Assembly: GCA_017601225.1 (NCBI GenBank)
Contig: JAFNIX010000011.1
Location: 1,121 to 65,120, forward strand
Reading direction: 5' to 3'
From: Candidatus Brockarchaeota archaeon
GTDB taxonomy: Archaea; Thermoproteota; EX4484-205; JAAOZP01
DNA length: 64,000 nucleotides
The notes under the pieces were generated by a model that saw nothing but the letters and a program-made list of their open reading frames with translations, did not search any database and was not told where the DNA came from. Shown here one piece after another: positions 9,959-63,034 of this stretch. Each line of letters starts with the position of its first letter. The first letter of the stretch is position 1. Made by a program: the position numbers and the translations under genes.

Positions 9959-9983
9959 TATTTAATCTCATCTGAATGATTCC

Positions 9984-11531: not shown

Positions 11532-11632
11532 TCCTTATTCTTTCACCGTCCTCCCATCTTTCGACGTCGTTTTAATCAGATGATCCATCAGGTTTCCCTG
11601 CTTTAAAAAGCCTATAAGGATTTCCCTGCCGT

Positions 11633-11986: not shown

Positions 11987-11996
11987 GGGGCACGAC

Positions 11997-13172: not shown

Positions 13173-13258
13173 ACCCCCTCTGTGACTGTTAGAAAATTTT
13201 TAAGATTTTCGAACACGTTGGATAAACTTATTAGGCTTAAGCCTAGTAAGAAACCGGC

Positions 13259-13576: not shown

Positions 13577-13849
13577 AATGTTATACAGGAGGAACCACGT
13601 GAAAAGCCAAGCCAGGAAGAAGCTTCCCACGCCCTCCTTCCAAACGGCGCTCTCATCCCTAAGCCTGCCCTTATAGATTCTTTTGAAAAAATAGTAGGTT
13701 AAGAAGTATGCCATAACCATGTTTAGGAGGGCGCTTATTATCGGGGAAGGGGAACGCCAGAAGAAGGCGTGTAAAGCACCCAGTATGGCTCCTAGGGCAA
13801 CCCTCGTCCAGTAAATGAGGCTTTCAGGTTTAAATCTGGATTCGCTCAT
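13559..13849 (-). CDS. small membrane protein (96 aa, about 3 TM)
   Basis: Hydrophobic segments: LIYWTRVALGAILGALHAFFW, IISALLNMVMAYFLTYYFF, VGSFFLAWLFTWFLLYNILF. It is divergent from the NFACT gene. Confidence 0.45.
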   Translation of the reverse strand: MSESRFKPESLIYWTRVALGAILGALHAFFWRSPSPIISALLNMVMAYFLTYYFFKRIYKGRLRDESAVWKEGVGSFFLAWLFTWFLLYNILFPYE

Positions 13850-13854
13850 TCATC

Positions 13855-43000: not shown

Positions 43001-44519
43001 CTGCTATAAGGGTTCTACTCCTTCCTGTGACTGCTGGAGACACTTGGTCCCACCTGATTCCCCAGTCTATCGAATTGGAGAGCTCATGAATTATAGCTAG
43101 GCTTAAGTAAACCTGGGGCCAAAGATTATCATATTGAACATTCTGGCTCAGCGGCAGTCCCCAGAAGAAGTTTAAGGTTCTACCCGTCTTTATCGTGAAG
43201 CCTAATCCATGAGCCATGGATAATGGCTCAGAATCCAGAATATATGGGGTCACTTGAGACCCCCACCAAGCATTCATGGGGAAACCGTAGATTACCTCTA
43301 CGGGGCTTACTTCCCTGCTAAAAGCATTCACTATATCCATAAGCTTTGTCTGCAACCATCCAGTCCATCTTGCCTGAACGGTTGTACTCCCATACCTGTA
43401 GAAAAACCCTTGACTGAGAAAAGATATGCTCTTAGAGCTTGTCGAAAAATCCATGTTGATCTGCAGCCAAATCTTAGTGTGCCCCTCAACAACACTATTG
43501 TTATAGAAGAACTCGTCCACAAAGGCTCTGGAGCCTGCAAGCGCCTCATAGTGGCCGGAGAAAGCAACGAACCAAATTGTCCTTTTAGGTTTCTTATCCG
43601 AGAAAACTCGTGCAAATTCTAGTAAGGCTGAAATCGATGTCGCCTCGTCTTTCGAAGATGCTAATGCAGGAACGACTGACCATGTATCGAAGTGGGTTGA
43701 AACAACAATTACATCATTCGGGTAATCCGTACCTTCTAATATACCAATTATATTTTGGCCGACAACGTTTTTGAAGACCATATTATTTACGATGGTGGCT
43801 TCAATTTCACCATTATTCTCCTCAAGCAGGTTTAAAACGAATAAAGCGTCTTTTCTAGAAATGTAAAGCCTCGGCAAGTATACTGGAGTAAGCAGGAACT
43901 TCGACCTGGCTTCAGCATGATTGCTCTCCTCAGGCTCGATGAAGATAACTCCCTTTGCCCCGAATGCAGCAGCCTGAACCCAGTTGCCCCCACTATTAAA
44001 ATCCATCAGAACGATCGTCCCGTTTATAGGCTTACCTTTAAGGGCTTGATAACTCCCGTCTCTAACGTAGAGGAGTTTACCGGAAACTCCTTCTGGAGGA
44101 GTCTTACAGGTTTGAATAAGATTAGGCCATAGTGAGAAGACCTTTATCCTATAAGAGCGGTCCTTGGTTTTCAGAACGATGTAGTTATCACCGTCTATTG
44201 GACTTACCACAGTGTAATTCTGAACAATTACCTTTAACCCTAATTCTTTAAACCTATCAGCTATGTATCTTGAAGCCCTATAGAAATCAGGGTAACCGGT
44301 TACTCTCGAGCTTAGAGAGGAGAAGAATTCCAAATGTTCAACAAGCCTCGACTTATCAAAATTTGACAAAACTGTTTGGAAGTCTCCAACATCATCCGGC
44401 TGGGCTTTCACGCTGAAAAAGGCTCCCATGCTGGAGAGCAAAGCTACCCCTATTAAAACCAAGATGAATGGAGTGAAAAAGTGTCTCCAGCATTCTTGCA
44501 AATCTTTATCAAATCTCAT
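40017..44519 (-). CDS. giant membrane protein: N-terminal TM + PA domain + M28-like peptidase domain + large extracellular region + two FtsX/MacB-like permease modules + cytoplasmic tail
   Basis: M28-like motifs VVSTHFDTW…SSKDEATSISALLEFARVF…FVAFSGHYEALAGSRAF. The FtsX signature VKERRGDLFVYSAVGLPPSGSAIMLIIEAVAYSILSVVPAYFLG lies near the C-terminus, with an earlier TM cluster. The ATG at 44519 has GAGGTGA 10 nt upstream (the track's TTG is at 44525). Confidence 0.75.
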   Translation of the reverse strand: MRFDKDLQECWRHFFTPFILVLIGVALLSSMGAFFSVKAQPDDVGDFQTVLSNFDKSRLVEHLEFFSSLSSRVTGYPDFYRASRYIADRFKELGLKVIVQNYTVVSPIDGDNYIVLKTKDRSYRIKVFSLWPNLIQTCKTPPEGVSGKLLYVRDGSYQALKGKPINGTIVLMDFNSGGNWVQAAAFGAKGVIFIEPEESNHAEARSKFLLTPVYLPRLYISRKDALFVLNLLEENNGEIEATIVNNMVFKNVVGQNIIGILEGTDYPNDVIVVSTHFDTWSVVPALASSKDEATSISALLEFARVFSDKKPKRTIWFVAFSGHYEALAGSRAFVDEFFYNNSVVEGHTKIWLQINMDFSTSSKSISFLSQGFFYRYGSTTVQARWTGWLQTKLMDIVNAFSREVSPVEVIYGFPMNAWWGSQVTPYILDSEPLSMAHGLGFTIKTGRTLNFFWGLPLSQNVQYDNLWPQVYLSLAIIHELSNSIDWGIRWDQVSPAVTGRSRTLIAAGATDVAGFITVYGRTLTFNVTKGWYTPLPNAMVAVFPGGLGYTNYPFQIIYVFSDSEGRFEVRGLGYGLAPCQGAYTFLAFRLNEETGLIEYAPDFGQYGAQYLPNYYQLNTDPYNVTTIAFRSNTVVFFNLFDYQGLRPLIFRDPRVPTNIWLQSIPSVQLLNAKSLGPDISWGVFLQPDDKILVAFVQPHTYFVSFMTIGSMRVLQVLLTNTSTALIPPYDFSGYCSKDNEEIHINALLESALNIYTTSVNRYSGLRELNIWNPLIQDSLNNALFYRGLLSDSLRTLDYLTMLQSAVSLNSIVVRTYGGVMGLINDIPTTSIFLIIILALFSFLAPAVFIRAQGKIVAASSGIIFIVMMLLLYYVNPIFKLAANFIMAPLSVIVVVFFVIVTFLFSSEALNTLKTIRRKALGAHFAERSLTSFTLVIFPYTIEHMKRRKLRTSLVMLSIASVVFAFVSLTSVSIFQAPMPSTIPEGKVNYIGICIKTNIRQQPAGAFDYDLINILKQERFADLTVIVAPRFWWYPESIEGRDVYTFIKTNISSTTIKAVIGLTPEEYQVYDYSKALIEGRWFNSEDYYSAILPLNIAKDLSVKVGDTIVFEGLNLKVVGIVNSSTLNSFVNFDGYIDTPLYPILPSIVLGTVQEPQYAPTPWSMMLILPHELVKDMGGYLASVSIVTKSYDDAATLAERIANVYSIPIYVSSQEGAKYYSPIVSFTPSGLSFALPLIVIGAASISVAVLGSVKERRGDLFVYSAVGLPPSGSAIMLIIEAVAYSILSVVPAYFLGVVANSLLIAGKLLPESFSLNATSLSIALAIFAGILSTLLAMFYPIRMASKLITPSLERKWKIPTKPKGNIWDIPLPFSLTEEKEVEAVYLFLEEFFKAHTSETPDPFIVRSIKTDLKGKTQELLVSLMPLDSGVYQRALINSKFYEDTRKYDFLLRLERIEGTPDTWVALNYGFIDAVRKQLLTWKMISDSEKNKYIELVDKGGMR

Positions 44520-44592
44520 TAGCAATCTTCACCTCTTCTAACATCCTGCCCGTAACAATTTATGATAAAAAAGAGTTTTTAAGGTTTTCTGA

Positions 44593-46602
44593 TTAAAATC
44601 TTCCGAGCCATGATGGCAGCGATACATTGAAGAAAGTGATTAAAGCTCCGAATAATACTAGAACGCCGAAGCCTATACCAATCCCCATTGCTATCGGCAT
44701 CCATTTTTCCTCGAATACTCTTGAGCCGCCGAACTTGAGGACCGCATATTTTACGATGAAGGCTACGAGCCAAGCGGGCCAGAAGCCCTCAGGCAACATC
44801 ATTAGACCTACTGGATTTATGAAGAACCACCGGAACCTTGACCTAAGACTATAGCATGCGAAGACGAATATCGTGCCCACTATAGTATAGGTCCATGTCT
44901 CCGCGACGGTTACTGCTGGAGGCGTACCGTAAGTGTAATTGTAAATTGTCGGCAGCATCCAAGCATCGTATTGTATAGAGTTTATCCTTGAGTATCCTCC
45001 GAAGCTTGTCATGAACCATGGCCATATGAAGTAAGCAGCAACGGCAGTAACTACTATAGAGGTTAACGCAACATAGAGTATTTCTTTATAGCTTGTATTA
45101 GTCGCCTCGCCTATTTTGAAGGACATGAAGCCCCAGTGTATGTTCATAGGACTCATCCTGGAGCCAGCTAATCCTAGTGAGGTGTACATCAACATAGCAT
45201 TGAATGCGTCTGGAGATGGTCTTTGACCCCACTGGCCTAGGAAAGTACCTGTGTCGAAAACTATGCCGTGATAGGAGCCACCGTAGGGATAGAAGTGTTG
45301 CTCTCCCATTATTCTTATCCAAGCGAACATGATGAAGACATAGAATATTGGGATGAATACTGCCATCACTATTGGTGTTCCCGCTACGGCGAAGAGTATG
45401 ATTTGGATAAGTAGTGTTCCTATGGCGCCGAACGCCATAAGCCTATATGAAATACCACCCACATCTCCACCTTCCCCAGAAATACCTTTTCTAAGAACTT
45501 CCAAGATATACTTATAGTACTTGAAAACTACGTATAGGGCTATGCCTACGGAAACAAGAGCGTCAAACTGGGCCCACTTGAATACTCCGAGCGAGTACGG
45601 GTATTGAGTCTCGTTTCCAGCGCCTGGTGTGAACGGGTTTATTCCCAGTCTGACAGCAGCTGTTTGGAATAGAACTCCCCAGATAAACCACCAGAGGGTA
45701 GCTGTCGCCAACACGTCTAAAGGAATCAGTTGTCCTATGGAAAAAGCATCAATAACATAAAAGTTGCCGACGAGTAATGCTCCGGGCAATGGGCCAGATG
45801 TTATAGCCAAAAGGTCTACTGGCCAGTTGGCCAGCGCATTGCCTCCGAAGGCCAGTGGCCAGAAGTTTATAACCTGCCCAGGAATTGAAAGCAGCATTCC
45901 TATGATAAGCCCTATGTAGAAGAACTTTACGCTGCCAATTTTCAGGTTGAATAGGTTAGGCTTATCGTCACTTGTCGTGGTGAAATTGTTTATCATGAAG
46001 CTTACTGGCATGACCCAGGGAAACGGCAGTTTTTCTACCTCCATTAACGGCTTTATTAGCATAGTTCCCCAGAACCACAAGGTTGCGAATTCGACGATTG
46101 ACCAGACTATCCAGAAGAGGATTGGTACTAACCATGGGCCAATGTCGAAGGCACCGCCATACCAGAAAGCGTTCATAACAACAGGATCCTTAGGAACAAT
46201 GAAAGGCGGAACTTTCTCGTAGAAAACTGCTTTGTATGCTTCCGTGTTTAGACCTGTTGTTGCATGTGCGATGCTCCAATTTGTTATCGGCGTAGTAGTC
46301 CAGTAGCCTATTCCCTGTGCAGCATAGTAGCTGCCAGCAGTTATATAGCAGATTACGAAGAACAGTGTTAGCTCCTGTGAAGAAAGCCTGATCCTTCCAG
46401 AGAGTTTAGATAGCACATAGATTATCACAAGATTCCAGAAGAATGGCAACGGGAATATTAATGGATAGTTCCACCATGCTCCGAAGCCCTGCATCACCAG
46501 GTTTAGAAAGTATCCTACTGGAGGAATCAGTATTGCGGAAATTATGATCCATGTTTTCAGGCCAGAAGGCTTAACCCTTTCCTTTGGAGCTGTTTCCCCC
46601 AA
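44593..46602 (-). CDS. 669-aa polytopic membrane protein, paralog A (OPT-superfamily-like, tentative)
   Basis: More than 14 TM segments. Motifs MEVEKLPFPWVMPVSFMIN and NWPVDLLAITSGPLPGAL. The TTG start is supported by AGGTGAT (46608-46614) 5 nt upstream. It is first in the operon with the 1500-aa and 642-aa genes. Confidence 0.65.
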   Translation of the reverse strand: MGETAPKERVKPSGLKTWIIISAILIPPVGYFLNLVMQGFGAWWNYPLIFPLPFFWNLVIIYVLSKLSGRIRLSSQELTLFFVICYITAGSYYAAQGIGYWTTTPITNWSIAHATTGLNTEAYKAVFYEKVPPFIVPKDPVVMNAFWYGGAFDIGPWLVPILFWIVWSIVEFATLWFWGTMLIKPLMEVEKLPFPWVMPVSFMINNFTTTSDDKPNLFNLKIGSVKFFYIGLIIGMLLSIPGQVINFWPLAFGGNALANWPVDLLAITSGPLPGALLVGNFYVIDAFSIGQLIPLDVLATATLWWFIWGVLFQTAAVRLGINPFTPGAGNETQYPYSLGVFKWAQFDALVSVGIALYVVFKYYKYILEVLRKGISGEGGDVGGISYRLMAFGAIGTLLIQIILFAVAGTPIVMAVFIPIFYVFIMFAWIRIMGEQHFYPYGGSYHGIVFDTGTFLGQWGQRPSPDAFNAMLMYTSLGLAGSRMSPMNIHWGFMSFKIGEATNTSYKEILYVALTSIVVTAVAAYFIWPWFMTSFGGYSRINSIQYDAWMLPTIYNYTYGTPPAVTVAETWTYTIVGTIFVFACYSLRSRFRWFFINPVGLMMLPEGFWPAWLVAFIVKYAVLKFGGSRVFEEKWMPIAMGIGIGFGVLVLFGALITFFNVSLPSWLGRF

Positions 46603-48632: not shown

Positions 48633-48660
48633 GGTTAAAACCTAGTGGTTAAAACCTAGC
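48633..48660. repeat. tandem duplication of a 14-nt unit spanning the stop codon of paralog B (ggttaaaacctagt / ggttaaaacctagc)
   Basis: Read directly, 13/14 identical. The second unit contains the stop and the last 3 codons (…ARF*). Confidence 0.85.
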
Positions 48661-50658
48661 GAACCATGCTGGCAAAGCTGTTCCGAAGAAAGTTATCAAG
48701 GCGCCGAAGAGCACTAAGCCGCCGAAGCCTATGCAGGCTCCCGTTGCCATTGGCAGCCATCTTTCTTCAAAAACTCTTGCACCGCCGAACTTGAGAACCG
48801 CATACTTTATAACGAAGGCTACAAGCCAAGTTGGCCACCACCCGTTCGGGAGCATCAGCATTCCTATCGGGTTTATGAAGAACCAGGTGAATCTAGCTCT
48901 TAAGAAGTAGATCAGCGGTGTGACGACTATTCCGAGCAATGCATAGCCCCAAGTTTCTTCTACTGTGAGGGCTGGAGGAGTACCGTATGTCCAGTTGTAT
49001 ATTCCTGGGAGAGACCAGTCATTGTAGCTTATCGAGTTGATTCTAGAATATCCTCCGAAGCTCGTCATGAACCATGGCCATATGAAGTAGACCGCAACTA
49101 GCGTTGAAAGCAGCGAGATTATGGTGATGTAGAGAACTTCCTTTCCTGACGTGTTGGTCTCGTAAGCCATCTTGTAGGATTTGAATCCATGGTGCATCGC
49201 CATGGAGCTCATTCTTAACCCTGTGCCATAGCTGTAATACATCAGTATCGTGTTGAAAGCTGCTGGAGATGGTCTGGGGCCCCACTGGCCTAGGAAAGTG
49301 CCTGTGTCAAACACTAGGTATGAATAGGTGTCTACGCTTGGCATGAACTCCTCAACTTCACCCATCATCCTTGTCCATCCAAACATGTAGAAAATGAAGA
49401 ATAGCGGTATGAATATGGCCATGATTATCGGCGAACCTGTGACGGTGAACAGGATGACTTGAAGCAGGTATGTGCCTATGGCTCCCCAGGCTAGGAGTCT
49501 ATAGGAAACTCCATCGTCCTCAGCCTTTTCCCCCTTCAGACCCTTCTTGAAGATTTCCAAAATATGCTGCCTATACTTGACCACAACGGTAGCAGCCAGA
49601 CCTAGTGATAGACCTATCCAGGAAAACTGCATCCATTTAAATGGGCCCAGGTTCCAAGGATATGCAAACTCGTTACCTGCTCCCGGTGTGAATGGGGCTA
49701 GGCCGGTTCTAACAGCTAAAGTTTGATAGATTACACCGAAGACAAACCAGTAAAGAACTGCTGTGGCCAGTGCATCTAAAGGTATGAACTGTGCTACGAA
49801 CACGTCAGTGACATAAAGGTTGCCGGAAGTTAATGCTCCGGGCAATGGGCCAGATGTTATAGCCAAAAGGTCTACTGGCCAGTTTGTGAGGGCATTGCCT
49901 CCGAAGGCCAGTGGCCAGAAGTTTATCACCTGCCCCGGAATCGAGAGCAATGCTCCAATTATGAAGCCTATCCAGAAGAGCTTCGTCAACCTAAGTCTAA
50001 AGTTGAAGAGAATGGGAGTTCCCTCTTCTTCCTCCGTGTAGTATTTAACAAGATACGTGTGAGGCGCTATGCCTGGGAAAGGCAGTCTCTCAGTTTCGAC
50101 TAATGGCTTTCTAAGGAAATAACCCCATATTGCCATTCCAATGAATTGCCCTATTCCCCAGACTATCCAGAAGAGAATTGGAACCAGCCAAGGACCTAGG
50201 TTGAAGGTGCCGCCATACCAGAAGGCACGCATCACCACGGGATCCTTAGGGACAATGAAGGCAGGGACTTTCTCATAGAAGACACTTTGGTATGCTTCGT
50301 TATTTAATCCAGAGGTTGAGAAACCTATGTTCCAATGTGGAAGCGGAGTGGTGGTCCAATAGCCGAATCCGTATGCAGCATACATTCCACCTGCTGTTAT
50401 GAAGCATACCACGAAGAATAATGTGACCTCCTGTGGGGAAAGCTTAAAACTTTTAGACATTTTGGTTAGTAAGTAGAATATTACTATATGCCAGAAGAAT
50501 GGCAACGGGAATATTAATGGATAGTTCCACCATGCTCCGAAGCCCTGTATTATTAGGTTTAGAAAGTATCCTACTGGAGGAATCAGTATTGCGGAAATTA
50601 TGATCCATGTTTTCAGGCCAGAAGGCTTAACCCTTTCCTTTGGAGCTGTTTCCCCCAA
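48649..50658 (-). CDS. 669-aa polytopic membrane protein, paralog B (OPT-superfamily-like, tentative)
   Basis: Same length as paralog A with no indels (constant 4056-nt offset). The first 35 residues are identical and the remainder is clearly diverged. Motif VETERLPFPGIAPHTYLV. Confidence 0.65.
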   Translation of the reverse strand: MGETAPKERVKPSGLKTWIIISAILIPPVGYFLNLIIQGFGAWWNYPLIFPLPFFWHIVIFYLLTKMSKSFKLSPQEVTLFFVVCFITAGGMYAAYGFGYWTTTPLPHWNIGFSTSGLNNEAYQSVFYEKVPAFIVPKDPVVMRAFWYGGTFNLGPWLVPILFWIVWGIGQFIGMAIWGYFLRKPLVETERLPFPGIAPHTYLVKYYTEEEEGTPILFNFRLRLTKLFWIGFIIGALLSIPGQVINFWPLAFGGNALTNWPVDLLAITSGPLPGALTSGNLYVTDVFVAQFIPLDALATAVLYWFVFGVIYQTLAVRTGLAPFTPGAGNEFAYPWNLGPFKWMQFSWIGLSLGLAATVVVKYRQHILEIFKKGLKGEKAEDDGVSYRLLAWGAIGTYLLQVILFTVTGSPIIMAIFIPLFFIFYMFGWTRMMGEVEEFMPSVDTYSYLVFDTGTFLGQWGPRPSPAAFNTILMYYSYGTGLRMSSMAMHHGFKSYKMAYETNTSGKEVLYITIISLLSTLVAVYFIWPWFMTSFGGYSRINSISYNDWSLPGIYNWTYGTPPALTVEETWGYALLGIVVTPLIYFLRARFTWFFINPIGMLMLPNGWWPTWLVAFVIKYAVLKFGGARVFEERWLPMATGACIGFGGLVLFGALITFFGTALPAWFARF

Positions 50659-54036: not shown

Positions 54037-54285
54037 AAAACTCTTTGCAAAATATTCAGAAAATCGGTGTTACAGGGTTGCATGAAAAACTTATTAAACA
54101 GCATCTTCCTCCAATACTTCGGGGAGGGGGGCCAAGAGAATTCTCTTAGCGCATGCATTATTGAAGAATCTGGTTCTCCACAAGACTCTTTTAACCACTG
54201 TATTTATGCATTCTTCCCTCTAAAAACAATGAGAGGATGGTTGAAAAAGCTCCAAGGATTTTGGGATGAATGAAGTAGGATTCGT

Positions 54286-54897
54286 CTAATCGAACTCCAC
54301 GTAGAACCAGAATCTCATCTTAGGATACTTATGGTGAAAACCTGTGGTCTTAGTTAGGAACGTCCCAACGTCTTTCATGAACGCATTAATGATGCCTAGA
54401 TTATCATTAATTTTCTTGTCAATCTCCTCGGTAGGCATGTCCCTCTTAGCTATTCGTTTAACGGCTTGCCACATTATCCTCCTATCCTCCTGGTTTTCTC
54501 GGCAGAGGAAAATTTCACCGCTTGCAAGAACCTTTATCTCGTCCTGCACCTCCTTCAAATCAAGTATTTCGCATGGCCAGAATACTCTTGGTACGATGTA
54601 GTCGCCATGACCCCAGGGATACTCGCTTCTTATCCAGGCCTTCACTTTCCGCCTCAGTTGCTCATACACCTCCCTTATCCCCTCTCGCTTCGAGAACTTG
54701 AGGTCGTATGCGGTAGCTAGGATGGTCGCCATATGTCTAAGCCCCTTCTGCCACAGGACATAGAATGCGTCTATACCAAGCCGCTCATCCGGAATGAGTA
54801 CAGGATGGTAAGAAATATCCCGCAGCTCCTTCTCCGCCTCAGATCTTTCCTCTTCCTTCTTCCATTTATAACAGACAAATAGATGATATTCGCCCAT
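54286..54897 (-). CDS. 203-aa hypothetical protein, last gene of the three-gene operon
   Basis: The ATG lies 5 nt after the stop of the 1820-aa gene. Soluble, Trp/Lys/Glu-rich (…FVCYKWKKEEERSEAEKELRD…YPWGHGDYIVPRVFWPCEILD…). I recognise no domain. Confidence 0.55.
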   Translation of the reverse strand: MGEYHLFVCYKWKKEEERSEAEKELRDISYHPVLIPDERLGIDAFYVLWQKGLRHMATILATAYDLKFSKREGIREVYEQLRRKVKAWIRSEYPWGHGDYIVPRVFWPCEILDLKEVQDEIKVLASGEIFLCRENQEDRRIMWQAVKRIAKRDMPTEEIDKKINDNLGIINAFMKDVGTFLTKTTGFHHKYPKMRFWFYVEFD

Positions 54898-54902
54898 CTC
54901 CT

Positions 54903-57900
54903 TTAACCACCAACCATCCCCTTAACCTCATCTAAGCTCTTAAGCTCCCCTTTAATATAGATTTCCAGCGGCACGTAGAGTTGCTCATGCAACCCTATGG
55001 CATGCTTCACATAGTATTTTGCTCCTTCTCCAGTAATATCGTTTCCGATAAAAAGCCTTATCGTAATCTTCTTGTCACCCAATATTTGCATCTTTGCATA
55101 AGTAAAGTAGTCTGTTATTTGACCCGGATCCGTTTCAGTTTCATATCCATGTTTACACTCCACAAGAGTTATAGTTCCATCCCGACCCTCCGTCGTTATG
55201 TCAATAATTCTATACCTTGTTTCGGATAATTCAAGTTTCTTCTCTATCGCAACTATACTCTCACCTATGCTCTTGAAGAGGGTTATCGCATTGATCTCAA
55301 GCAGGGTGTGCTCTGGGTTCTTGTTAAGCTGGTCAAGTATTCCTCTCTTAATGCTTCCATCCATACTTATGAACACGGGTTTTGTCTTCTCATCCTCCAC
55401 GTATTCTCCCACGAGGAGATTCTTCAGCGTATCCGGCTTATCGGATCGGCCGTAGTAGTTCTCTAGCTCATGGACTAGTTTGAGCAGTTTCAGGTCTCTG
55501 AAGGTGTCCTCTTTATCCCTGTAGATCGCTAGCTCAGCGTGTAACTTCCCATCCTCACCTATATTCAGGCGTAAGCCTAAAACATGATCGTCGGGTAGAG
55601 TCATCTTCAAGTATTTCCTAGGGCCCATAGTGTCGACGTAAGGCTCTTCAACAGGTATTCTTACCTCCTCGTATCCAACCTTGGCTGCAAGCTCGTAGCC
55701 ATCACCAGTGGTGGATGTTAGCCTAACCGTTTTACCTACAAGGTCAACCCCGTCAATACCATCAATCCTGACCACGTAAAGCCCTATTATCCCGTCCTCC
55801 TTCACCGGATGATGCTTGAAGCTGAACTCCAGCTCCTGGCTCCAAACGCTGTGAATAGTATTGTCCTCGCCAACGTAGACAAGTGCTAATGCAGCCTTCT
55901 TGCTTCTAAGCATGTTTCTAAGATTCTCCAACCCGTTTCTGCCAAGCACTTTCTCAAAGTCCTCGCCGAGGGTGATTTTCGTCTGGCCTGCTGCAACCCC
56001 CCTAAGCCTATCCCTGTCGCGGAGGAAGAACGTGCCAGTGTCGGGAATGCTTCTCTCCATAACCAGGTGCATGGGGCTCGCCTTCTCCCCGTAAGTTATC
56101 TCGAGAAGCTTCGCCAGCACCTTTCCAGCCCCATCGTCGAAAACCTTGAAGCCTATGCCTACAACCCTCTGCTTGAAAACCGTCTCGCCCTTAGCTGCCT
56201 GCCCCAAGTAGAGCTCCCCGCTTATTGAAAGCCTAAACTGCTGCGTGTCCCTATCGACATCATCATACTTGAACTCCAAGTAGACTGAGCCCGAGGCAGC
56301 CTTAACATTCGCATCCAGCTCAGCCACAGGCTCACCGCTGCTTGTGACCAGCAACATCCTGTCTCCACCTCCCAGCCTGACGAACTTTGGCGGCGCCTCA
56401 ACATCCTGTAAGAAGTCCTTCACACCATACGGTGTGAAGACAGCCAGATAATCCCTATTCGTATCGAACTCCGCCTCTCTGAACCTAAGAGTTCTCTTCT
56501 CCTCAATAACGCCTCGCTCATTCTCCTCAACCGTCCCCCTGACGCCCTCAGCTGCATCCTCCCCTGTCTCCGGGTCTATCACCGTGACCCGGTAGACCCC
56601 TGGCTCAACCCCCTTCTCCTCAATGATCAGGCTGTCACGGGAGTCTGGCTCCAGGAAAACCGTCTTCAGTCTCCTCGTGAACACGTTGAGCCAAGTGTCA
56701 AGTCTCTCAGGATGCTTAACGACATTCTCGAGGAAAACCTTGGCGACCCGTTTCCCGTAATGATCCCCGGCTGAGAAATACGCGTCGAAGAGCTTAAGCC
56801 CGTTCTCGAAGCCTCCCCCAACCTTGGTTAACGCCTTCCCAATACTGTTGAGCTCCTCGTCGCCAAGCCCCATGGATTTCTGCAACGCGTAGAGGGCTTC
56901 ACCTAACCCCTTCTTTTCCAGGCTTCCAAGCCAGTCCATCAACAGTTTCCCAGGCTCGCCACCCTTCTTCCATGCCTCCAGCTTGCTTACCCTCTTCCAT
57001 GCTTCGACAATAGTCTTCGCGGTGTCCTCTCTGCCAACGTATTCCTCCCCCATCCTGCCAAGTATGCTCAGAATCCTCGTTGCAATGCTTTCAGGAACAC
57101 CTTTATCCGATGTGACTCTGTCGACGATGTTTGAGGCTCTTTTCGCAATTTCCTCTGGCTCCCCACCGTCGGGGAGTGTTTTCAAAGCCTTTTCAACGTT
57201 TTCCCCGAAGTCTTTGCTAACTTGGCCTGCGAAGATTAGCCTCAAAACATCCGGTAGGGTGAGTTTGCCCTTCAACCATGCTCCGAATTTCATCCCTGTT
57301 TCAGCAAGGTCCCATATTGCTGGGGTTACCCAAGCGTAGAGGCCCTGTGCAAACCTTTTCAAAACTGAGGATGCTGAGATTCGCCCAGATTGCCCAGCCA
57401 TCGTTAGCATATCCCTTGCCGTTGAGAACTCGTGGTAGATGGTTGCGAACGTCGCCGCGTAGGTTACTGCCTCAATCATAGCGCCCACGATTTTACCTGT
57501 TGCGTAGCCCTGCTCGTACTCGCCCGCGTTTTTCCATCCTAGTGCTGTCTTGACTTCTTCGAGCTTAACGTCCATTACGAGCCTTAAGCCTAGGTCGCTA
57601 GCTACCTCTCCCGCCTTGCTGAGGAATGTTTGAGAAAGGTTGTCGCAAATGGCTGCGAAGCCGTGTTTGCCTTGTAACCTGTAGCCGGTGGCCATTCCAC
57701 TGTATATTAGCCCCATGGCTGTGAGGTTTCTTAACGCGGTGGTCGCGTTGAATATCTCTCCCCTCTGGTTGTAGACTTGGTATGCTTTAAGAAACGTGAG
57801 GGCAACCGCTATCACGGGCATGAGCTCCCTCGGAACCATCGCGACCGTGCCAAGCATCATCATGTTCACCATTATCCTATCGCTCCTATTGATGAGGCCT

Positions 57901-60365
57901 AGGATGAAGCCCCGCCACCATTGCAGTGAAAGAGGAAATGGTGGGCTTAGAACCCTAGGTAGGAAGAGCTCAGCTACAAGCCTATCACCCTTACGAAGCC
58001 TTATCCAGAAGGTTGTGTTCGAGAAGAGGAGTATGCTTAACTCTTTGCAGCATGCTTTCTCAGCTTTCAGTATTGTGCTCTCAGATTTTCCAGGTGGAAG
58101 GGTGACTGGCTCAACGGTAAACGTGTAATCTATGTCTTGCGTCGCATAGTTTCTCAGCCAGATGCCCCTTATTAATGAGCTTTCCAGAGGAGTCTCTTGA
58201 AGCGGGTGGTAGAGCAGGATAATCCTGTTAGCATAGAGCTCTCTTTCAAGAGGAGTTAGCTCGAGTATCGCATCTGAGGAGGGCCACTCCTCTTTGTTGC
58301 CGTCCTCATACCAGTAGCATCCTTCTCGTATTCTTCCGAAGTCCTCCTGCTGAAGCCTCCTGTAGGCTGATGTGTCAACCCAGAGCGGTTTCCTAACCAC
58401 CCTCTTTGAAGCAAGGGTAACCTTGTATCCCTCTGGGGCAACTATTTCCCCGCAGCCCGTGACGTTGAGAATACTCTTAGCCTCATTCTCCCTTACCAAC
58501 TTCTCTTCGAAAGCTGGCATGACACTCTTCACCACGTATTTCACTGGGACTGTTGTCTGCAGCCCTTGGACAGGGATAAGGGGGCCTACGAGGACATCAC
58601 CATAGATGTTTAACGTAACTTCTTTAGGGATGACTCTGAGTTCGAAGCCCTCGTCTGCGATAGGCAGGAACGAGGTGTAGACCTTGACGCCTTCAGCCTC
58701 AAGGATGAGGCCTTGGAAGCTTATGGTGAAGCTTCCCGGTATTTCGAAAGCTGAGTAGGGATGGTAGATTTTAACGTGGGTGTAGCCCTCGTAGCCTGGG
58801 ACGAAGACCCTCCTCTTCTCAAAATGCTCTGGAACCCTTAAAGTGTACTCTTCGAAGTGCTCTGGCACGACGTAGGCTGGTGAAACAACCGTTGTAAAGC
58901 CCTCTGAAACATACTTGTTCCCGGAGGAGTCGAAGAATATTGCCCTAGCCCTTATGCTTGCAACCTCCGATCTCAGCTTAAGAGTAACCATCCTGATCCA
59001 TGTTTCACAAGCAGGTATGCTTCCAACACTGAGGCTAAGAGGCTCAACGTCGCCAGTGAACTCTAAGACTGTGTTGAGGGCTTCGCCTGCACCCTTGTTC
59101 TCAAGCCTAACCGTAATGTTAACATGCTTGAAAAACGGCTCCCCGCCTTCAAGGCTAACCTCAACCCTGGGCGACTCAGGACCGACAACATTAACAGTGT
59201 AGGTGACCTCGTCCGGCGGAGGCCAGCCTGGGAAGAAAGCATTCCCGTCAAGCTTAAGCGTTAATATGTAGGTTCCCGGTGCGATGGCTTTCAGCTTGAA
59301 GCACCCCTGGGTTTGAGTATTGTTGAGCACGCGTCGAGCATCGTCTAAAGGCTCGAAGCCATCTGGGTAGTGGAGGGTTAGGGTAGCGTTGAGAGGTTGC
59401 TCCTCAGGGTCGATATAGAGTGGCGTGGCGACGTAGCTTACCTCCAGAATATCCCCGGTTTCAACACTGCTGGATGAGAGGCTTGCCTCGACGAGCCAGC
59501 CTGATAGCCAGACAGGATCGTAGGCTGGGAAAAGTACTCTAAAATTCTCCTCGTGCTCTGGAATTAGGACGTCGATATCCTCGTAGTGACCTGGGACAGC
59601 AACTAGGAAAGATGGCGTTGATCTTGAGAAGTCTATCATTGTCCCGGGTGGTATCGTGGTCAGGTTCGCATACTCCGGGAAATATTTGAGCAGGAAGGAT
59701 GGGAAGGATGGTTGAGCAGATCCTCCAGCAATCCCGAACTCAGGGTATACTCCAAGACTCAAGCTGGATAGAACACTATGGGCCTCACCTGTTTCAAGAT
59801 CCATGTAGGTTATGTTGTAGAGGCCCTCTATCCTCCTCCTAATCTTGTACCACCTTGTTTCCGTAACGTTGTAGACGAGGTGCTGCTTGCCCCCTATCGC
59901 CCTGGAGTAGACGTGGAAGCATGCTGGGAGAGTGCGGAACAGGGGGACGTCGATAGGGATGTGGATTAAGACTGCTCCGAAACCGTTTCTCTTAACGTAA
60001 GCCTTGTCATACCTTATCTGGAAGCTCTCGTTTCCAACCCTAGCTGCATCAGGAAGCCTAACACTCTCCATGAGGCTTGAGAAAGCCGTGCGAATATCGT
60101 TGTCATCCGCGCCATGGCTTACGAAGGATGCTGCATAACGCCAAAGATTCTTAACGTCGTCCATCGAAACACCCTCAGGCATTATGAACTCTCTGTCGCT
60201 AAGAGGCCCCTCCGGAGGGATTCCCAGCTCTATCTCCCTTATGAGCGTGTCGAGCTCAACGCTAGCAGGCTGCTCCCCGGCCCCGCCTAGGTTGACTAGG
60301 ATTACAGGGTTCTCAGCGGCGAGAAGGATGAGAATAAGCAGTATACCTGTTACCCTCTTCATCAT
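54903..60365 (-). CDS. 1820-aa multidomain envelope protein: signal/anchor + beta-rich sequon-dense N-half (CARDB-like segment) + hydrophobic cluster + sequon-free C-half ending in a PD-(D/E)xK nuclease-fold domain
   Basis: N-terminus MMKRVTGILLILILLAAENP. CARDB-like VEVSLEGGEPFFKHVNITVRLENKGAGEALNTVLEF (about 58930-59175). Hydrophobic cluster IMVNMMMLGTVAMVPRELMPVIAVALTFL … GKIVGAMIEAVTYAATFATIY (about 57430-57880). C-terminus RYRIIDITTEGRDGTITLVECKHGYETETDPGQITDYFTYAK (D…ExK…QxxxY). The start ATG overlaps the upstream stop (ATGA). Confidence 0.8.
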   Translation of the reverse strand: MMKRVTGILLILILLAAENPVILVNLGGAGEQPASVELDTLIREIELGIPPEGPLSDREFIMPEGVSMDDVKNLWRYAASFVSHGADDNDIRTAFSSLMESVRLPDAARVGNESFQIRYDKAYVKRNGFGAVLIHIPIDVPLFRTLPACFHVYSRAIGGKQHLVYNVTETRWYKIRRRIEGLYNITYMDLETGEAHSVLSSLSLGVYPEFGIAGGSAQPSFPSFLLKYFPEYANLTTIPPGTMIDFSRSTPSFLVAVPGHYEDIDVLIPEHEENFRVLFPAYDPVWLSGWLVEASLSSSSVETGDILEVSYVATPLYIDPEEQPLNATLTLHYPDGFEPLDDARRVLNNTQTQGCFKLKAIAPGTYILTLKLDGNAFFPGWPPPDEVTYTVNVVGPESPRVEVSLEGGEPFFKHVNITVRLENKGAGEALNTVLEFTGDVEPLSLSVGSIPACETWIRMVTLKLRSEVASIRARAIFFDSSGNKYVSEGFTTVVSPAYVVPEHFEEYTLRVPEHFEKRRVFVPGYEGYTHVKIYHPYSAFEIPGSFTISFQGLILEAEGVKVYTSFLPIADEGFELRVIPKEVTLNIYGDVLVGPLIPVQGLQTTVPVKYVVKSVMPAFEEKLVRENEAKSILNVTGCGEIVAPEGYKVTLASKRVVRKPLWVDTSAYRRLQQEDFGRIREGCYWYEDGNKEEWPSSDAILELTPLERELYANRIILLYHPLQETPLESSLIRGIWLRNYATQDIDYTFTVEPVTLPPGKSESTILKAEKACCKELSILLFSNTTFWIRLRKGDRLVAELFLPRVLSPPFPLSLQWWRGFILGLINRSDRIMVNMMMLGTVAMVPRELMPVIAVALTFLKAYQVYNQRGEIFNATTALRNLTAMGLIYSGMATGYRLQGKHGFAAICDNLSQTFLSKAGEVASDLGLRLVMDVKLEEVKTALGWKNAGEYEQGYATGKIVGAMIEAVTYAATFATIYHEFSTARDMLTMAGQSGRISASSVLKRFAQGLYAWVTPAIWDLAETGMKFGAWLKGKLTLPDVLRLIFAGQVSKDFGENVEKALKTLPDGGEPEEIAKRASNIVDRVTSDKGVPESIATRILSILGRMGEEYVGREDTAKTIVEAWKRVSKLEAWKKGGEPGKLLMDWLGSLEKKGLGEALYALQKSMGLGDEELNSIGKALTKVGGGFENGLKLFDAYFSAGDHYGKRVAKVFLENVVKHPERLDTWLNVFTRRLKTVFLEPDSRDSLIIEEKGVEPGVYRVTVIDPETGEDAAEGVRGTVEENERGVIEEKRTLRFREAEFDTNRDYLAVFTPYGVKDFLQDVEAPPKFVRLGGGDRMLLVTSSGEPVAELDANVKAASGSVYLEFKYDDVDRDTQQFRLSISGELYLGQAAKGETVFKQRVVGIGFKVFDDGAGKVLAKLLEITYGEKASPMHLVMERSIPDTGTFFLRDRDRLRGVAAGQTKITLGEDFEKVLGRNGLENLRNMLRSKKAALALVYVGEDNTIHSVWSQELEFSFKHHPVKEDGIIGLYVVRIDGIDGVDLVGKTVRLTSTTGDGYELAAKVGYEEVRIPVEEPYVDTMGPRKYLKMTLPDDHVLGLRLNIGEDGKLHAELAIYRDKEDTFRDLKLLKLVHELENYYGRSDKPDTLKNLLVGEYVEDEKTKPVFISMDGSIKRGILDQLNKNPEHTLLEINAITLFKSIGESIVAIEKKLELSETRYRIIDITTEGRDGTITLVECKHGYETETDPGQITDYFTYAKMQILGDKKITIRLFIGNDITGEGAKYYVKHAIGLHEQLYVPLEIYIKGELKSLDEVKGMVGG

Positions 60366-61540
60366 TTCCCTGATTCCCTTCCCTCCTGATGCTTCCTAAG
60401 CCTGCTGAGCCCGAGAGCCGCGAGGAGAGTGAAGACAAACAGGGAGGCGAGGATTATGCAGACGATTCTAAGCACGTTGTTCTCTCCCCTCAGGGCTTCA
60501 GCCTCACTCCTGACAGTTGCAAGTGTATTGTTGAGAGTATGCATTCGGCTGAGGCTGTTGAGCCATCTTTCCTCCAACACCCTATTTAACGCGTTAAGCT
60601 CAACCACGCTGGTGTTAAGCTCCACCACCTTAGAAGACAATTCTTCAACAAGGTGGGTTAGGGTCTCGTTGCTCTCCTCAAGCATTCCAACCCTATTCCT
60701 AAGCTCTGAATATGCTTTCCAGATTTCAACCTGAATGTTAAGCGTTGCGCCGAACGTCGAATCCATAGTCTTAACGTTGACAGTGAGATTCCCAGGCTCA
60801 GGCAACCTTGCAACATAAGCGTTGCCTTCGAGGATGATTGAGCAGGGGTCCCAGGTTAAACCGTGTCTCAGGATTCCCTCGACGCTGACGATGGACTGGC
60901 TTGAAGCAATGTTTAGCCTAACCTCTATGGCCTGCTCCCCAACCCTGATGGATGAGACACCTATGCTGGCGATGCTAACTGCTTGGGCACCCTCAACCCT
61001 AATCATGAAGTTCCTCGGCCTACCGCTCTTCTCATCCCATACTTTGACTATCCTGCCCTCCTCCCTGTTTACAAGCAGGCTTCTCCCGCTTATCGGAGGG
61101 TCTTCGTCAACACCTATCCAGAGCTGAGTGGCGTCGAGGGAGAAGCACGGGTATATGCAGACATAGAACTCGCCGTTAACAGTGATGTTTGGAAGAGGTA
61201 TCCTGGCCCAGCCGAAGGTGCCGTTCTTTAAAAACTGGAAGGTCGCGTACTGTTTAGTGTAGACTAGGCTGAAATATTGGTCTCTGACCTCAAGGGTGAA
61301 AAGCATGTTCCCACCCCTCTCCAACGCTAAGCCGTAGAAAACCACGCCGGTTATCCTCCAAGGCAGTGCTGGCGGGGTAAACCTGACTGCTGCGCCGCTA
61401 GGGTAGAAGTCGCTCCAAGCATAGTCGAAGCTCCCATCATCGTAAGCAAGCTCGAAGGGGGAAGCGTAAACCTTTAGAGGATTTAGGAGGAGAGTTGAGG
61501 ATAAGGCTAGGGCTAGAATAAGCCAGACATGCTTACTCAT
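60362..61540 (-). CDS. surface-anchored protein: signal peptide + beta-rich ectodomain + coiled-coil stalk + C-terminal TM anchor (SlaB-like architecture)
   Basis: Signal peptide MSKHVWLILALALSSTLLLNPLKVYA. 6 N-x-S/T sequons. Heptad-rich AYSELRNRVGMLEESNETLTHLVEELSSKVVELNTSVVELNALNRVLEERW…EAEALRGENNVL. TM RIVCIILASLFVFTLLAALGLS, then a basic tail. The ATG at 61540 is preferred over 61600 because a TATA-like element sits about 25 nt upstream of it. Confidence 0.7.
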   Translation of the reverse strand: MSKHVWLILALALSSTLLLNPLKVYASPFELAYDDGSFDYAWSDFYPSGAAVRFTPPALPWRITGVVFYGLALERGGNMLFTLEVRDQYFSLVYTKQYATFQFLKNGTFGWARIPLPNITVNGEFYVCIYPCFSLDATQLWIGVDEDPPISGRSLLVNREEGRIVKVWDEKSGRPRNFMIRVEGAQAVSIASIGVSSIRVGEQAIEVRLNIASSQSIVSVEGILRHGLTWDPCSIILEGNAYVARLPEPGNLTVNVKTMDSTFGATLNIQVEIWKAYSELRNRVGMLEESNETLTHLVEELSSKVVELNTSVVELNALNRVLEERWLNSLSRMHTLNNTLATVRSEAEALRGENNVLRIVCIILASLFVFTLLAALGLSRLRKHQEGRESGK

Positions 61541-61563
61541 AGCTGGGTTAATAAGGGTTAAGG

Positions 61564-61573
61564 TTTTAAATAA
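61564..61573 (-). promoter_or_regulatory. TATA-box-like element (TTATTTAAAA on the minus strand) 23 nt upstream of ATG 61540; candidate promoter of the three-gene operon
   Basis: The minus strand reads AAAAACTTATTTAAAACCTTAACCCTTATTAACCCAGCT-ATG. The spacing fits a leaderless transcript. Confidence 0.45.
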
Positions 61574-62101
61574 GTTTTTCGAATACACGCATATTTTCAT
61601 CCTAACAAGTATGAATTAAGACGTTTTTAAGCACCAATATTACAGAATTCTTCTCAAAGGAACTTTTATGGTGGATTTCTTGGCTTGATGATATTTTAAG
61701 TACTTCGGTTCATATAGCGTGTATTATTTTTAGAATATTTGGTTAGAAAGCTAAATTTCATCTGAAAAGCATGTTTACTATTAATGTTCTGAGAGGAAAG
61801 GTACTTACGTTATAACAGAGAAATAATTATCCAAGTGGATGTATTATTTTGGGACGAAGAGGGATTAGGAATAGTCGACTCGATACCTCTGTTATGTGGA
61901 TGTCTTGAAAAATTGTCTTAAAATATTTTGGAAATCAAGTAAAATTTAAGCGCCGGTACTACACGTGCGACTAATTGCTTAATATTTATAAACAAGAATC
62001 GCGGATACCAATATGAAAATGCCCCTGCCTAATAAGCGCGCTTATTTGCTATATCTATCTAAATTATTAAAAAGAATAAGAAAAGAAATTTTTAAATAGA
62101 A

Positions 62102-63034
62102 TTATGCTTCCTTAACTCCTTCCAATGCCTCACGCAAACCCTTGTAACGGTTGCGAACAGTAACCTCAGTCACATTCGAAGCCTCAGCAATCTGCTTCTG
62201 AGTAAAAAGCTGTAAGCCTAATCTCTGAGTTGCAAGGTACATGGCTGCGGCGACCATGCCTAATGGGTCCTTCCCGGCCGTGATCTTTTTATCCTTCGCT
62301 TCTTTTAAAATTTTCAATGTTTCTCTTTCTACTTCTGGTCCGACTTTGAGTTTGCTTGCTACTTTTTCAACGTATATTGCTGGGTCGCTCAGGGGCATTT
62401 TGCTTTCAAGTGATCTGATTAGTAGCCTGTAGCTTCTCGCAACCTCTTTTCTTTTAAGCCCTGACGCGTTTGCAACCTCTTTAAGTGTTCTCGGTATTCC
62501 GCTGTCTCTGCACGCAGCATATAGTGCTGCCGCCGCAAGGCTGTTTATCGGTCTTCCTCTCACTAGTCCTCTTTCAAGCGCGTCCCTGTATATCTGTACT
62601 GCTCTCACGTATGTTGCTTTCGGCGCTTTAAGCTGGTCCGCTATTTGGGAGATTACTTTGCTCGCAACCTGGAGGTTTCTCTCCGCCGAGTTGTACGCTC
62701 TGTTTCTCTGCTGCCATAGTCTAAGCTTCTGGGCCTCAGCCATCGCTTTCTCGGATAGGACTTTTCCGGTTGCGTCTTTGATTCCTGTTTCAAGCGTTGT
62801 TGACAACCCGTAGTCGTATATTGCTGTCGAAAGCGGGCTTCCAACCCTGTCTCTTTTCTCAGACTCCTCGTCTCCGAATTCTCTCCACTCCTTAGTCTCG
62901 TCGAGCAGTTTCTGCACGAGCACGAAGCCGCATTCTGAGCAGTAGATTTCCCCAGACCTTTTATCCTCTACTATTTTCTTCGAGCCACACTGGGGGCATG
63001 CCCATCTCTGCAGCTCGTCTGTTGGGAGGCTCAT
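62102..63034 (-). CDS. tfb: transcription initiation factor B (TFIIB homologue)
   Basis: Zn-ribbon WACPQCGSKKIVEDKRSGEIYCSECGFVL, followed by two cyclin-like repeats (…RGRPINSLAAAALYAACR… / …GKDPLGMVAAAMYLATQ…). SD GGAGGT upstream of the ATG. Confidence 0.95.
   Translation of the reverse strand: MSLPTDELQRWACPQCGSKKIVEDKRSGEIYCSECGFVLVQKLLDETKEWREFGDEESEKRDRVGSPLSTAIYDYGLSTTLETGIKDATGKVLSEKAMAEAQKLRLWQQRNRAYNSAERNLQVASKVISQIADQLKAPKATYVRAVQIYRDALERGLVRGRPINSLAAAALYAACRDSGIPRTLKEVANASGLKRKEVARSYRLLIRSLESKMPLSDPAIYVEKVASKLKVGPEVERETLKILKEAKDKKITAGKDPLGMVAAAMYLATQRLGLQLFTQKQIAEASNVTEVTVRNRYKGLREALEGVKEA

Follow-up and report, generated by a model that had tools for sequence, protein, structure and literature searches.

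What would an archaeal cell do with a giant envelope protein that ends in a nuclease fold, and why should it be encoded between a coiled-coil surface protein and a small protein of no recognizable family? This question is raised by a three-gene locus in a 64,000-nucleotide stretch of a Candidatus Brockarchaeota archaeon (GenBank assembly GCA_017601225.1, contig JAFNIX010000011.1, positions 1,121 to 65,120), hereafter called the window; coordinates are those of the window unless a related locus is named. The three genes lie on the minus strand as open reading frames (ORFs) at 60362-61600, 54903-60365 and 54286-54897 (412, 1820 and 203 aa) and are called gene 1, the giant gene and gene 3. The giant is 100% identical to the NCBI protein JTT13_06695 from a Candidatus Brockarchaeota metagenome-assembled genome (MAG). 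A preliminary description of the locus had proposed a sensor coupled to a nuclease, either antiviral or related to DNA uptake, or else a surface structure with a DNA-binding anchor. The comparison of related loci points elsewhere, and we consider it probable that the locus is an archaeal polymorphic toxin-immunity system. We base this reading on a conserved scaffold, a crossover zone, swapped cassettes, cognate partner genes, tandem paralogues, orphan modules and several loci per genome, which are genomic features of the kind that defines polymorphic toxin systems (PMC3482391). Taken together, the same features suggest an immunity function for gene 3 and, for gene 1, a role as stalk or presentation partner at the surface.

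Exchange of C-terminal cassettes and their partner genes

Six related giants (P0002, P0003, P0004, P0005, P0009 and P0010) share 73-85% of their residues with the window giant between positions 31 and 1170, whereas over residues 1261-1820 they are 25-31% identical or cannot be aligned. The giant of locus L009 shows the reverse: its scaffold is only 25% identical, while the whole C-terminal 560 residues are 73% identical. Measured in steps of 40 residues, identity drops from 52-80% at residues 1161-1200 to 25-38% at residues 1201-1240. At the DNA level, homology to L005, L011 and L006 (79-84%) extends from gene 1 down to 56785/56776, and homology to L009 (77%) extends from 56868 to where the giant ends. 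The two boundaries flank the DNA at 56775-56852 that encodes LNSIGKALTKVGGGFENGLKLFDAYF (FENGxKLF; residues 1172-1197), the last conserved element before the variable part, and the junction is thereby mapped within ~100 nt. Beyond it lies an exchangeable C-terminal cassette of ~620 aa (residues ~1198-1820; 54906-56774, minus strand), delimited by the incongruence between scaffold and C-terminus identities and composed of a beta-rich part followed by a nuclease domain. Judged from these alignments, the breakpoints show that very different scaffolds have exchanged cassettes through recombination in the DNA that codes for the motif. The motif marks the crossover zone and is, by analogy, the presumed counterpart of the pre-toxin junction motif of bacterial systems.

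The downstream gene changes together with the cassette. The C-terminal tails form five BLAST clusters, to which added representatives bring no new one, and in all loci examined the downstream gene fits the tail cluster: tails of classes A and A2 are followed by the gene 3 family, class B by a family of 336-367 aa, the P0005 subtype by a PQQ-like beta-propeller and class E by a family of 216-235 aa. Where upstream DNA is present, members of the gene 3 family always stand directly 3' of a class A/A2 C-terminus, of a fragment of one or of another gene 3 paralogue, and this holds for the 20 further loci recovered by a metagenome scan with the gene 3 family. The partner genes are often diverged tandem duplicates (L001, L005, L009, L018, L025 and L047). 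At the other end, every locus with upstream DNA present has a gene 1 homologue (32-82% identity) that overlaps the giant's start, as counted over the individually fetched loci and 21 related genome loci. The triad, put forward earlier as a candidate system, is indeed co-located in the related loci: gene 1, giant and partner form one conserved unit, in which every cassette class comes with its own downstream gene family.

Orphan modules were found as well. In L005 and L011, a giant with a class A2 tail is followed by two partner genes, then by a 55-aa ORF and then by a gene 3-like gene. The 55-aa ORF of L005 (12967-13137 of that locus) matches the final 52 residues of the window giant at 81% identity, the gene behind it in both loci is 60% identical to the window gene 3, and the DNA of this orphan module is 71-74% identical to window positions 55062-54286. 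In L007, a fragment of a class B tail precedes a propeller gene. Longer arrays are present in L049 (C-terminus, partner, fragment, partner, partner) and L039 (partner, fragment, partner); a further orphan cassette/partner array is found in L042, and L033 has an internally deleted C-terminus with a partner. The window itself holds no orphan cassette. Finally, L010 encodes a stand-alone C-terminus of 345 aa with intact catalytic motifs, followed 5 nt later by a gene 3 homologue; the pair sits among housekeeping genes, and the full-length giant P0005 is encoded on a different contig of the same MAG.

The L010 pair looks like a type II toxin-antitoxin module, in line with the idea that the locus is a membrane-anchored toxin-antitoxin or abortive-infection module, in which the ectodomain and gene 1 would sense a virus or envelope damage and a cytoplasmic nuclease, freed from gene 3, would cut invading or host DNA. 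The tight translational coupling of the genes would allow immediate loading of the partner, and genes of PIN/MazE, HicAB, AbiEii, DndB and GmrSD type neighbour several of the loci. However, virus-driven selection should diversify the sensor, and it is the ectodomain that is conserved (73-85%) and the effector-inhibitor pair that is swapped. Moreover, orphan cassette remnants and tandem arrays of divergent inhibitors are typical of intercellular toxin systems and not of abortive infection. None of the three proteins was matched by the anti-phage defence models of PADLOC-DB v2 at E up to 1, and the family is absent from viral contigs. We therefore regard an abortive-infection module as unlikely, although it is the leading alternative, and return to it below where the membrane topology is discussed. 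For the same reason, the sensor-nuclease idea of the preliminary description fits less well than toxin and immunity, because the putative sensor is conserved whereas the effector-inhibitor pair is shuffled and hoarded; an antiviral or DNA-uptake sensor does not explain the switch from scaffold to cassette, the linkage of class and partner, the tandem paralogues or the orphans, and a surface structure with a DNA-binding anchor leaves the same comparative signal unexplained.

The family is narrowly distributed. Just 19 homologues of the giant were found among 5.8 billion clustered proteins, and a profile search with the scaffold over 1.84 billion representative proteins gave 92 matches at E up to 0.001, the weakest of which are unrelated CARDB-domain proteins. 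Nearly all named sources of the giant homologues are Brockarchaeota or Thermoproteota-type MAGs, with the exception of one partial protein labelled Freyarchaeota and of MAG records that bear the titles Thaumarchaeota or Nitrososphaerota. Among the species representatives of GTDB, 22 loci were recovered, one of them a spurious bacterial one, with 2-5 loci per MAG; the window's own MAG contains a second, partial copy of the giant (P0007). Scans of a viral contig collection gave no scaffold match and no gene 3 match, and a viral or mobile-element origin was set aside because both were empty.

Several loci show further peculiarities. The partial Freyarchaeota protein (P0021, 839 aa, from a Candidatus Freyarchaeota Asgard MAG) shares the membrane and helical part of the scaffold and ends in a cassette of class A that is 45-47% identical to that of the window; its presence in an Asgard MAG reflects either a binning error or a transfer between phyla. 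Two complete giant loci stand head to tail on one contig in L012 (1-14902) and in L038 plus L002 (both on contig Ga0078972_1003685); in L012, a frameshift or stop interrupts one of the giants (8922-9272 and 9407-14308), and a member of the gene 3 family is found in inverted orientation between the two loci. The flanks of L001, L002, L006 and L009 contain, within a few kilobases, PIN/MazE, HicAB and AbiEii genes and a DndB plus GmrSD pair, which are not found at the window locus.

The nuclease domain and the gene 3 protein

The preliminary description had recognized a PD-(D/E)xK motif set at the end of the giant, and the family alignment bears it out. The domain covers residues 1625-1820 (54906-55493, minus strand), with predicted catalytic residues E1708, D1722, E1736, K1738, Q1749 and Y1753 (codons within 55107-55253). 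The string E..D..ExK..QxxxY is invariant in alignment A3, whose eight class A tails share 14-72% identity with the window giant, and it is kept even in those tails that are merely 14-28% identical. AlphaFold2 folds the domain with high confidence (pLDDT 93, pTM 0.88) around an alpha-beta-beta-beta-alpha-beta-alpha core. The best Foldseek matches in the PDB are NucS/EndoMS, the Cas4-family protein ACE1, SfsA, the XisH-like 2okf, R.BspD6I, Card1, AF1548 and AdnAB; among the matches listed, those at E <= 1e-2 are mostly annotated PD-(D/E)xK nucleases, with probabilities of 0.77-1.0 overall and 0.97-1.0 for the top dozen. Alignment and model together confirm that the C-terminus of the giant is a PD-(D/E)xK nuclease fold with its predicted active site intact.

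The closest relatives are the RecB/Cas4/NucS-type nucleases (2vld, 5gke, 9iac), with which the domain shares the alpha-beta-beta-beta-alpha-beta core, the D...ExK on strands 2-3 and, as in the RecB/Cas4/NucS branch, a QxxxY on the helix following strand 3 (Q1749, Y1753). It differs from them by an identity of 12-15%, by the lack of the Cas4-type iron-sulfur cysteine cluster and by its fusion to a 1600-aa membrane protein. P0020, a 73%-identical orthologue that NCBI names 'restriction endonuclease', scores just below the thresholds of Mrr_cat (PF04471; E 5.7e-4, 20.4 bits against a threshold of 21) and further below that of Tox-REase-7 (PF15649; E 4.3e-3, 17.7 bits against 25), and neither family was matched by the window giant in the Pfam scan. 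A PDB sequence search with the nuclease domain alone found no match; the class A profile had ACE1 as its sole PDB match (E 0.053).

Do the other cassettes encode nucleases too? Most tails contain a D...(E/D)xK-like string. Pfam gave nothing useful on the last 260 aa of ten different tails, PDB profile searches with class B tails, class E tails and gene 3 found nothing relevant, and hhalign comparisons of class A with class B and with class E tails were not significant, so we do not claim that all cassette classes are nucleases. As a separate observation, the nuclease-domain DNA (54906-55493) has a G+C content of 0.43 (0.49 at third codon positions), against 0.51-0.53 (0.57-0.63) elsewhere in the giant and in gene 1, and 0.47 in gene 3; the lower value of the nuclease DNA fits a cassette of different origin.

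A nuclease of RecB/Cas4/NucS type in a surface-exposed protein with membrane segments might also belong to a DNA-uptake or DNA-transfer apparatus, the surface complex binding a partner cell or extracellular DNA and the nuclease processing what comes in. Such an apparatus leaves the cassette swapping, the cognate partner families and the orphan modules unexplained, and no conserved ATPase, pilin or channel gene lies beside the triad in the loci examined; we consider it very improbable.

Gene 3 (54286-54897, minus strand) encodes 203 aa with no signal peptide. Its family has 20 members, all from Brockarchaeota or Thermoproteota MAGs. The earlier impression of a protein with no recognizable domain has stood: searches of Pfam, NCBIfam and PADLOC returned no family at threshold for gene 3, nor for gene 1 or the giant, and the confident AlphaFold2 model of gene 3 (pLDDT 91.3, pTM 0.89), mainly helical with a small sheet, has no structural neighbour by Foldseek in the PDB or BFVD. 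From its position and by analogy with bacterial systems, we infer that gene 3 confers immunity by inhibiting the class A nuclease cassette, whose cognate partner it would be.

The invariance of the catalytic residues also bears on a reading in which no killing needs to occur. In a kin-recognition or compatibility system, non-lethal or only conditionally lethal, the giant and gene 1 would mediate adhesion or membrane fusion, and cassette and partner would mark identity or act as an incompatibility factor, with the check following cytoplasmic or membrane mixing. Proteus IdsD/IdsE, Myxococcus TraA with the SitA toxins and the fungal het loci offer analogues. A large Ig-containing ectodomain with a coiled-coil type I membrane partner would suit such a role, as would several loci per genome with different alleles; the polymorphic region could face the cytoplasm, which would suit delivery by membrane fusion or vesicles; and the authors of the VARTIG study proposed a comparable self/non-self role for a hypervariable surface module of archaea (PMC8416519). 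However, residues E, D, ExK and QxxxY that stay invariant in tails of 14-28% identity argue for selection on enzymatic activity, beyond binding specificity. Moreover, cell fusion is not documented in this lineage, and no fusogen-like domain was detected. A recognition or compatibility system of this kind is rather doubtful.

Membrane architecture and genomic surroundings

Gene 1 was described earlier as a secreted, C-terminally anchored coiled coil, which the closer inspection corroborates. In the 392-aa protein (60362-61540, minus strand), a signal peptide (61463-61540) precedes two beta-rich domains, the first of which forms the head. Next come a coiled coil of ~85 aa (residues ~273-358; 60467-60724), supported by weak Pfam and NCBIfam coiled-coil matches and by PDB profile matches, and a C-terminal transmembrane (TM) anchor, IVCIILASLFVFTLLAALGLS (60404-60466), followed by a short basic tail. 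The family alignment (A1) has 50 invariant columns, mostly within the head domain, where the string FELAYDDG..WSDFYP..AVRF.PP..WRI is conserved. In a PDB search with the family profile, 8qox_B, a 475-aa 'conserved membrane protein' that we take to be the S-layer stalk protein SlaB of Sulfolobus acidocaldarius, came out on top (E 1.1e-5); the match is restricted to the coiled coil and TM segment, and the remaining matches are generic coiled coils. The NCBIfam SlaB model NF040788 gave 11.5 bits for a cut-off of 700.

The architecture of gene 1 resembles SlaB, although at the sequence level the two agree in no more than the coiled coil and TM segment. Like Sulfolobales SlaB, gene 1 runs from a signal peptide through beta domains and a long coiled coil to a TM segment at the C-terminus, and co-transcription with a very large surface protein is shared as well. 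Could the locus then encode an ordinary S-layer or adhesin pair like SlaA/SlaB, with an incidental C-terminal motif? The domain order, the best PDB match, the weak NCBIfam match and a giant ectodomain rich in glycosylation sequons speak in its favour. Yet the head domain of gene 1 is unrelated to SlaB, and the giant is not SlaA-like by Pfam or NCBIfam. The slaAB gene order is, in addition, the reverse of the order gene 1-giant. The S-layer identity was rejected on the 2-5 divergent copies per MAG, the internal membrane segments of the giant and a nuclease with conserved catalytic residues, and we find it scarcely credible.

The giant (54903-60365, minus strand) opens with a signal peptide or signal anchor (60276-60365; Kyte-Doolittle peak 2.34), followed by an ectodomain of ~800 aa (residues ~31-830; 57876-60275). 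Within the latter, residues ~391-478 (~58932-59195) are related to CARDB/NEW3 Ig domains, because the weakest matches of the scaffold profile are such proteins. Directly after a conserved WWRGF motif comes a hydrophobic helical hairpin (residues 831-859; 57789-57875), with a Kyte-Doolittle value of 1.73 in the window giant and up to 2.46 in distant homologues. A third hydrophobic segment (residues 959-977; 57435-57491) scores 1.42 in the window giant and up to 2.5 in homologues, and leads into a conserved helical region (residues ~978-1171; 56853-57434; alignment A4), which includes a WVTPAIWD motif and ends at the junction motif. Hairpin and third segment are moderately hydrophobic in the window giant, whereas values of 2.2-2.5 are reached in distant homologues. 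The C-terminal half is richer in charged residues than the ectodomain (30% against 22% of D, E, K and R).

On which side of the membrane does the cassette lie? If all three segments span the membrane, it would be cytoplasmic in the producer; if the hairpin alone spans it, the cassette would be outside. Counts of lysine and arginine around the third segment gave no signal by the positive-inside rule. Observed and expected numbers of N-x-S/T sequons were compared in 21 full-length family members. Sequons are enriched in the ectodomain (267 observed, 82 expected, ratio 3.3) and in the loop between the hairpin and the third segment (26 against 9.2, ratio 2.8), and depleted in everything after the third segment (residues after ~978; window 54906-57434; 5 against 47.5, ratio 0.11). 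Within this last part, counted in 20 members, both the conserved helical region (2 against 13.7, ratio 0.15) and the variable cassette (3 against 32.6, ratio 0.09) are depleted. Control counts were 34 against 31.4 (ratio 1.08) in soluble proteins of the same window, 8 against 7.6 (ratio 1.05) in the non-gene-3 partner families and 3 against 7.3 (ratio 0.41) in the gene 3 family. The density thus switches from enriched to depleted at the third hydrophobic segment.

This pattern suggests that at some stage the oligosaccharyltransferase on the outer side of the membrane has access to the C-terminal half, which must stay unglycosylated, because a purely cytoplasmic domain would have no reason to avoid sequons. 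Such avoidance would be expected for a toxin that later enters another cell. It also bears on the abortive-infection module considered above: hydropathy fits three membrane segments with a charged C-terminal half behind them, as that module would need, but a cytoplasmic domain should not show a 10-fold depletion of sequons. The two halves of the giant were proposed from the outset as surface-exposed and cytoplasmic; the sequon-rich ectodomain and the charged C-terminal half are confirmed, whereas the assignment of the latter to the cytoplasm is insecure in view of the weak third segment and the ~10-fold depletion.

The junctions of the three genes read exactly as first reported. The ATGA at 60362-60365 is a 4-nt overlap of the gene 1 stop and the giant start, and the entire 5-nt gap between the giant stop and the gene 3 start is a Shine-Dalgarno-like AGGAG (54898-54902, minus strand), which may aid the translational coupling of giant and gene 3. 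Overlapping or nearly abutting junctions of gene 1, giant and partner are seen again in related loci, so the tight coupling is not due to chance. The TATA-like element reported upstream of 61540 was also found: a BRE/TATA-like (TFB recognition element and TATA box) element, CGAAAAAC-TTATTTAAAA, at 61581-61564 on the minus strand, ~28 nt upstream of the ATG at 61540, would function as a promoter, judging by its match to the archaeal consensus. It sits within the longer ORF that begins at 61600, from which gene 1 counts 412 aa. Since the alignment of gene 1 homologues begins at the methionine at 61540, this is probably the true start, giving 392 aa, and the mRNA of the operon is probably leaderless or nearly so. 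Two oligo-T tracts 3' of gene 3 (54222-54248, minus strand) form a putative archaeal terminator.

The flanks of the locus are ordinary, with a gene for transcription factor B (TFB) at 62102-63034 and genes for a V4R protein and an S-adenosylmethionine methyltransferase at the opposite end. No tRNA gene occurs in the window. A TFB gene adjoins the locus both here (upstream, same strand) and at L005 (13767-14699 of that locus, downstream, opposite strand), and the difference in placement suggests a rearrangement beside the locus. Farther away, a lower-GC stretch (0.41-0.45; ~38-52 kb of the window) contains the minus-strand gene of a 1502-aa protein with M28 peptidase, MacB-like periplasmic and FtsX permease domains (40017-44525) and, next after it, that of a 642-aa protein of no family (38087-40015, minus strand). 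Two paralogous 669-aa multi-pass membrane proteins of the uncharacterised DUF6785/DUF6784 family are encoded 2 kb apart (44593-46602 and 48649-50658, both minus strand), with a GFO/IDH/MocA oxidoreductase between them.

A probable polymorphic toxin system of archaeal make

How far does the likeness to known systems go? Bacterial polymorphic toxin systems, including the Sec-dependent and PrsW types (PMC3482391), share with this locus a conserved N-terminal scaffold or trafficking region that switches sharply, at a junction motif, to exchangeable toxin cassettes. Shared, too, are a downstream immunity-like gene whose type changes with the cassette, immunity paralogues in tandem, orphan modules of cassette plus immunity gene, multiple loci in one genome and a toxin of restriction-endonuclease fold. 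A parallel to the membrane segments is the PrsW-type class, for which a membrane-embedded module N-terminal to the toxin was predicted as a conduit (PMC3482391). The protein families are different, however: RHS, FHA, LXG, PAAR, MafB, HINT, PrsW, Imm and pre-toxin families all scored below the curated Pfam and NCBIfam cut-offs, the cassette is unusually long (~620 aa) and comes in five tail classes, a coiled-coil type I membrane partner is obligatory upstream, and the family is restricted to one archaeal lineage. To call the locus a system with no described counterpart, as was done at first, is correct for its protein families and too strong in principle, the logic of toxin and immunity being of a known kind.

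Among bacterial systems, contact-dependent inhibition (CDI; CdiB/CdiA/CdiI, type Vb) offers a similar layout: a three-gene operon of a membrane partner, a giant surface protein and an immunity gene, with a giant that runs from a receptor-binding region through a membrane-interacting region to a C-terminal toxin, and with orphan C-terminus/immunity pairs downstream. Some CdiA C-termini are PD-(D/E)xK-fold nuclease toxins. In contrast to CDI, the archaeal locus has no outer membrane, Omp85 transporter, two-partner secretion domain, FHA repeats or VENN motif to go with it, and gene 1 is a coiled-coil stalk, not a beta-barrel CdiB; the likeness is one of analogy, not homology. The nearest concept from archaea is the VARTIG module of Thermococcales (PMC8416519), likewise lineage-specific and built around a large secreted protein with Ig domains. 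The C-terminus of that protein is hypervariable and recombines, the genes downstream of it vary, and its authors note an organisation that resembles polymorphic toxin systems (PMC8416519). Its protein families are unrelated to those described here and its variable part is an Ig domain with no enzymatic toxin, whereas the Brockarchaeota locus has a nuclease cassette, a one-to-one partner family and clear orphan modules.

Several points weigh against a toxin-immunity system. Toxicity, neutralisation by gene 3 and transfer between cells are all predictions from genes. No known export or delivery machinery is encoded nearby, and no processing protease or cleavage site was identified. Hydropathy permits a three-TM topology with the cassette in the producer's cytoplasm, and the sequon argument is indirect, being drawn from sequences that are not fully independent. 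Just five tail classes were found, and among them class A alone is demonstrably a nuclease, while classical polymorphic toxin systems have many unrelated toxin folds and shorter cassettes. Finally, the PIN/MazE, HicAB, AbiEii, DndB and GmrSD neighbours seen at several loci would also fit toxin-antitoxin or defence functions.

Nevertheless, a coherent mechanism may be suggested. Gene 1, probably trimeric, would form a coiled-coil stalk that holds or presents the giant's ectodomain on the cell surface, and gene 3 would bind and block the nuclease, so that producer cells and their kin are spared. Contact with a related archaeon would lead to release or transfer of the unglycosylated C-terminal cassette, which would then degrade nucleic acid in cells that lack a matching gene 3 allele. 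Candidate modes of transfer are self-export via the giant's own membrane segments, a hairpin-anchored C-terminus that is already outside, and vesicle or membrane fusion. A bolder form of this proposal, which we put forward tentatively and hold to be somewhat less likely than not to be right, is an archaea-native, contact-dependent toxin delivery unrelated to any bacterial secretion system, in which stalk and giant together export the cassette, or deliver it by membrane fusion, into neighbouring archaea, and in which immunity groups would be set by the alleles of gene 3.

In archaea, polymorphic toxin systems have been predicted and never characterised (PMC8416519), and those of the classical kind are rare there and look like loans from bacteria (PMC3482391, PMC8416519). 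Our literature search, which did not cover the arCOG-based catalogue of Makarova et al. 2019 (mBio), returned no description of such a system in Brockarchaeota. If the bolder proposal of archaea-native delivery is true, TACK/Thermoproteota archaea would have here their first native polymorphic toxin system, and a new route for protein transfer across archaeal envelopes would come to light. The family is lineage-specific and built of undescribed parts, namely a scaffold, a coiled-coil partner and a gene 3 fold with no described relatives, and its comparative signature is unusually clean, with a junction within ~100 nt, perfect linkage of class and partner, and orphan arrays. It offers a testable pair of nuclease and inhibitor, the latter with a new predicted fold, and it poses the mechanistic problem of how a cassette behind membrane segments reaches the target cell. 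The switch from sequon enrichment to depletion may, moreover, be a general sequence-only marker for exported segments that archaea keep unglycosylated. For the uncultured archaea of hot springs themselves, the locus provides a handle on strain-level competition or kin discrimination.

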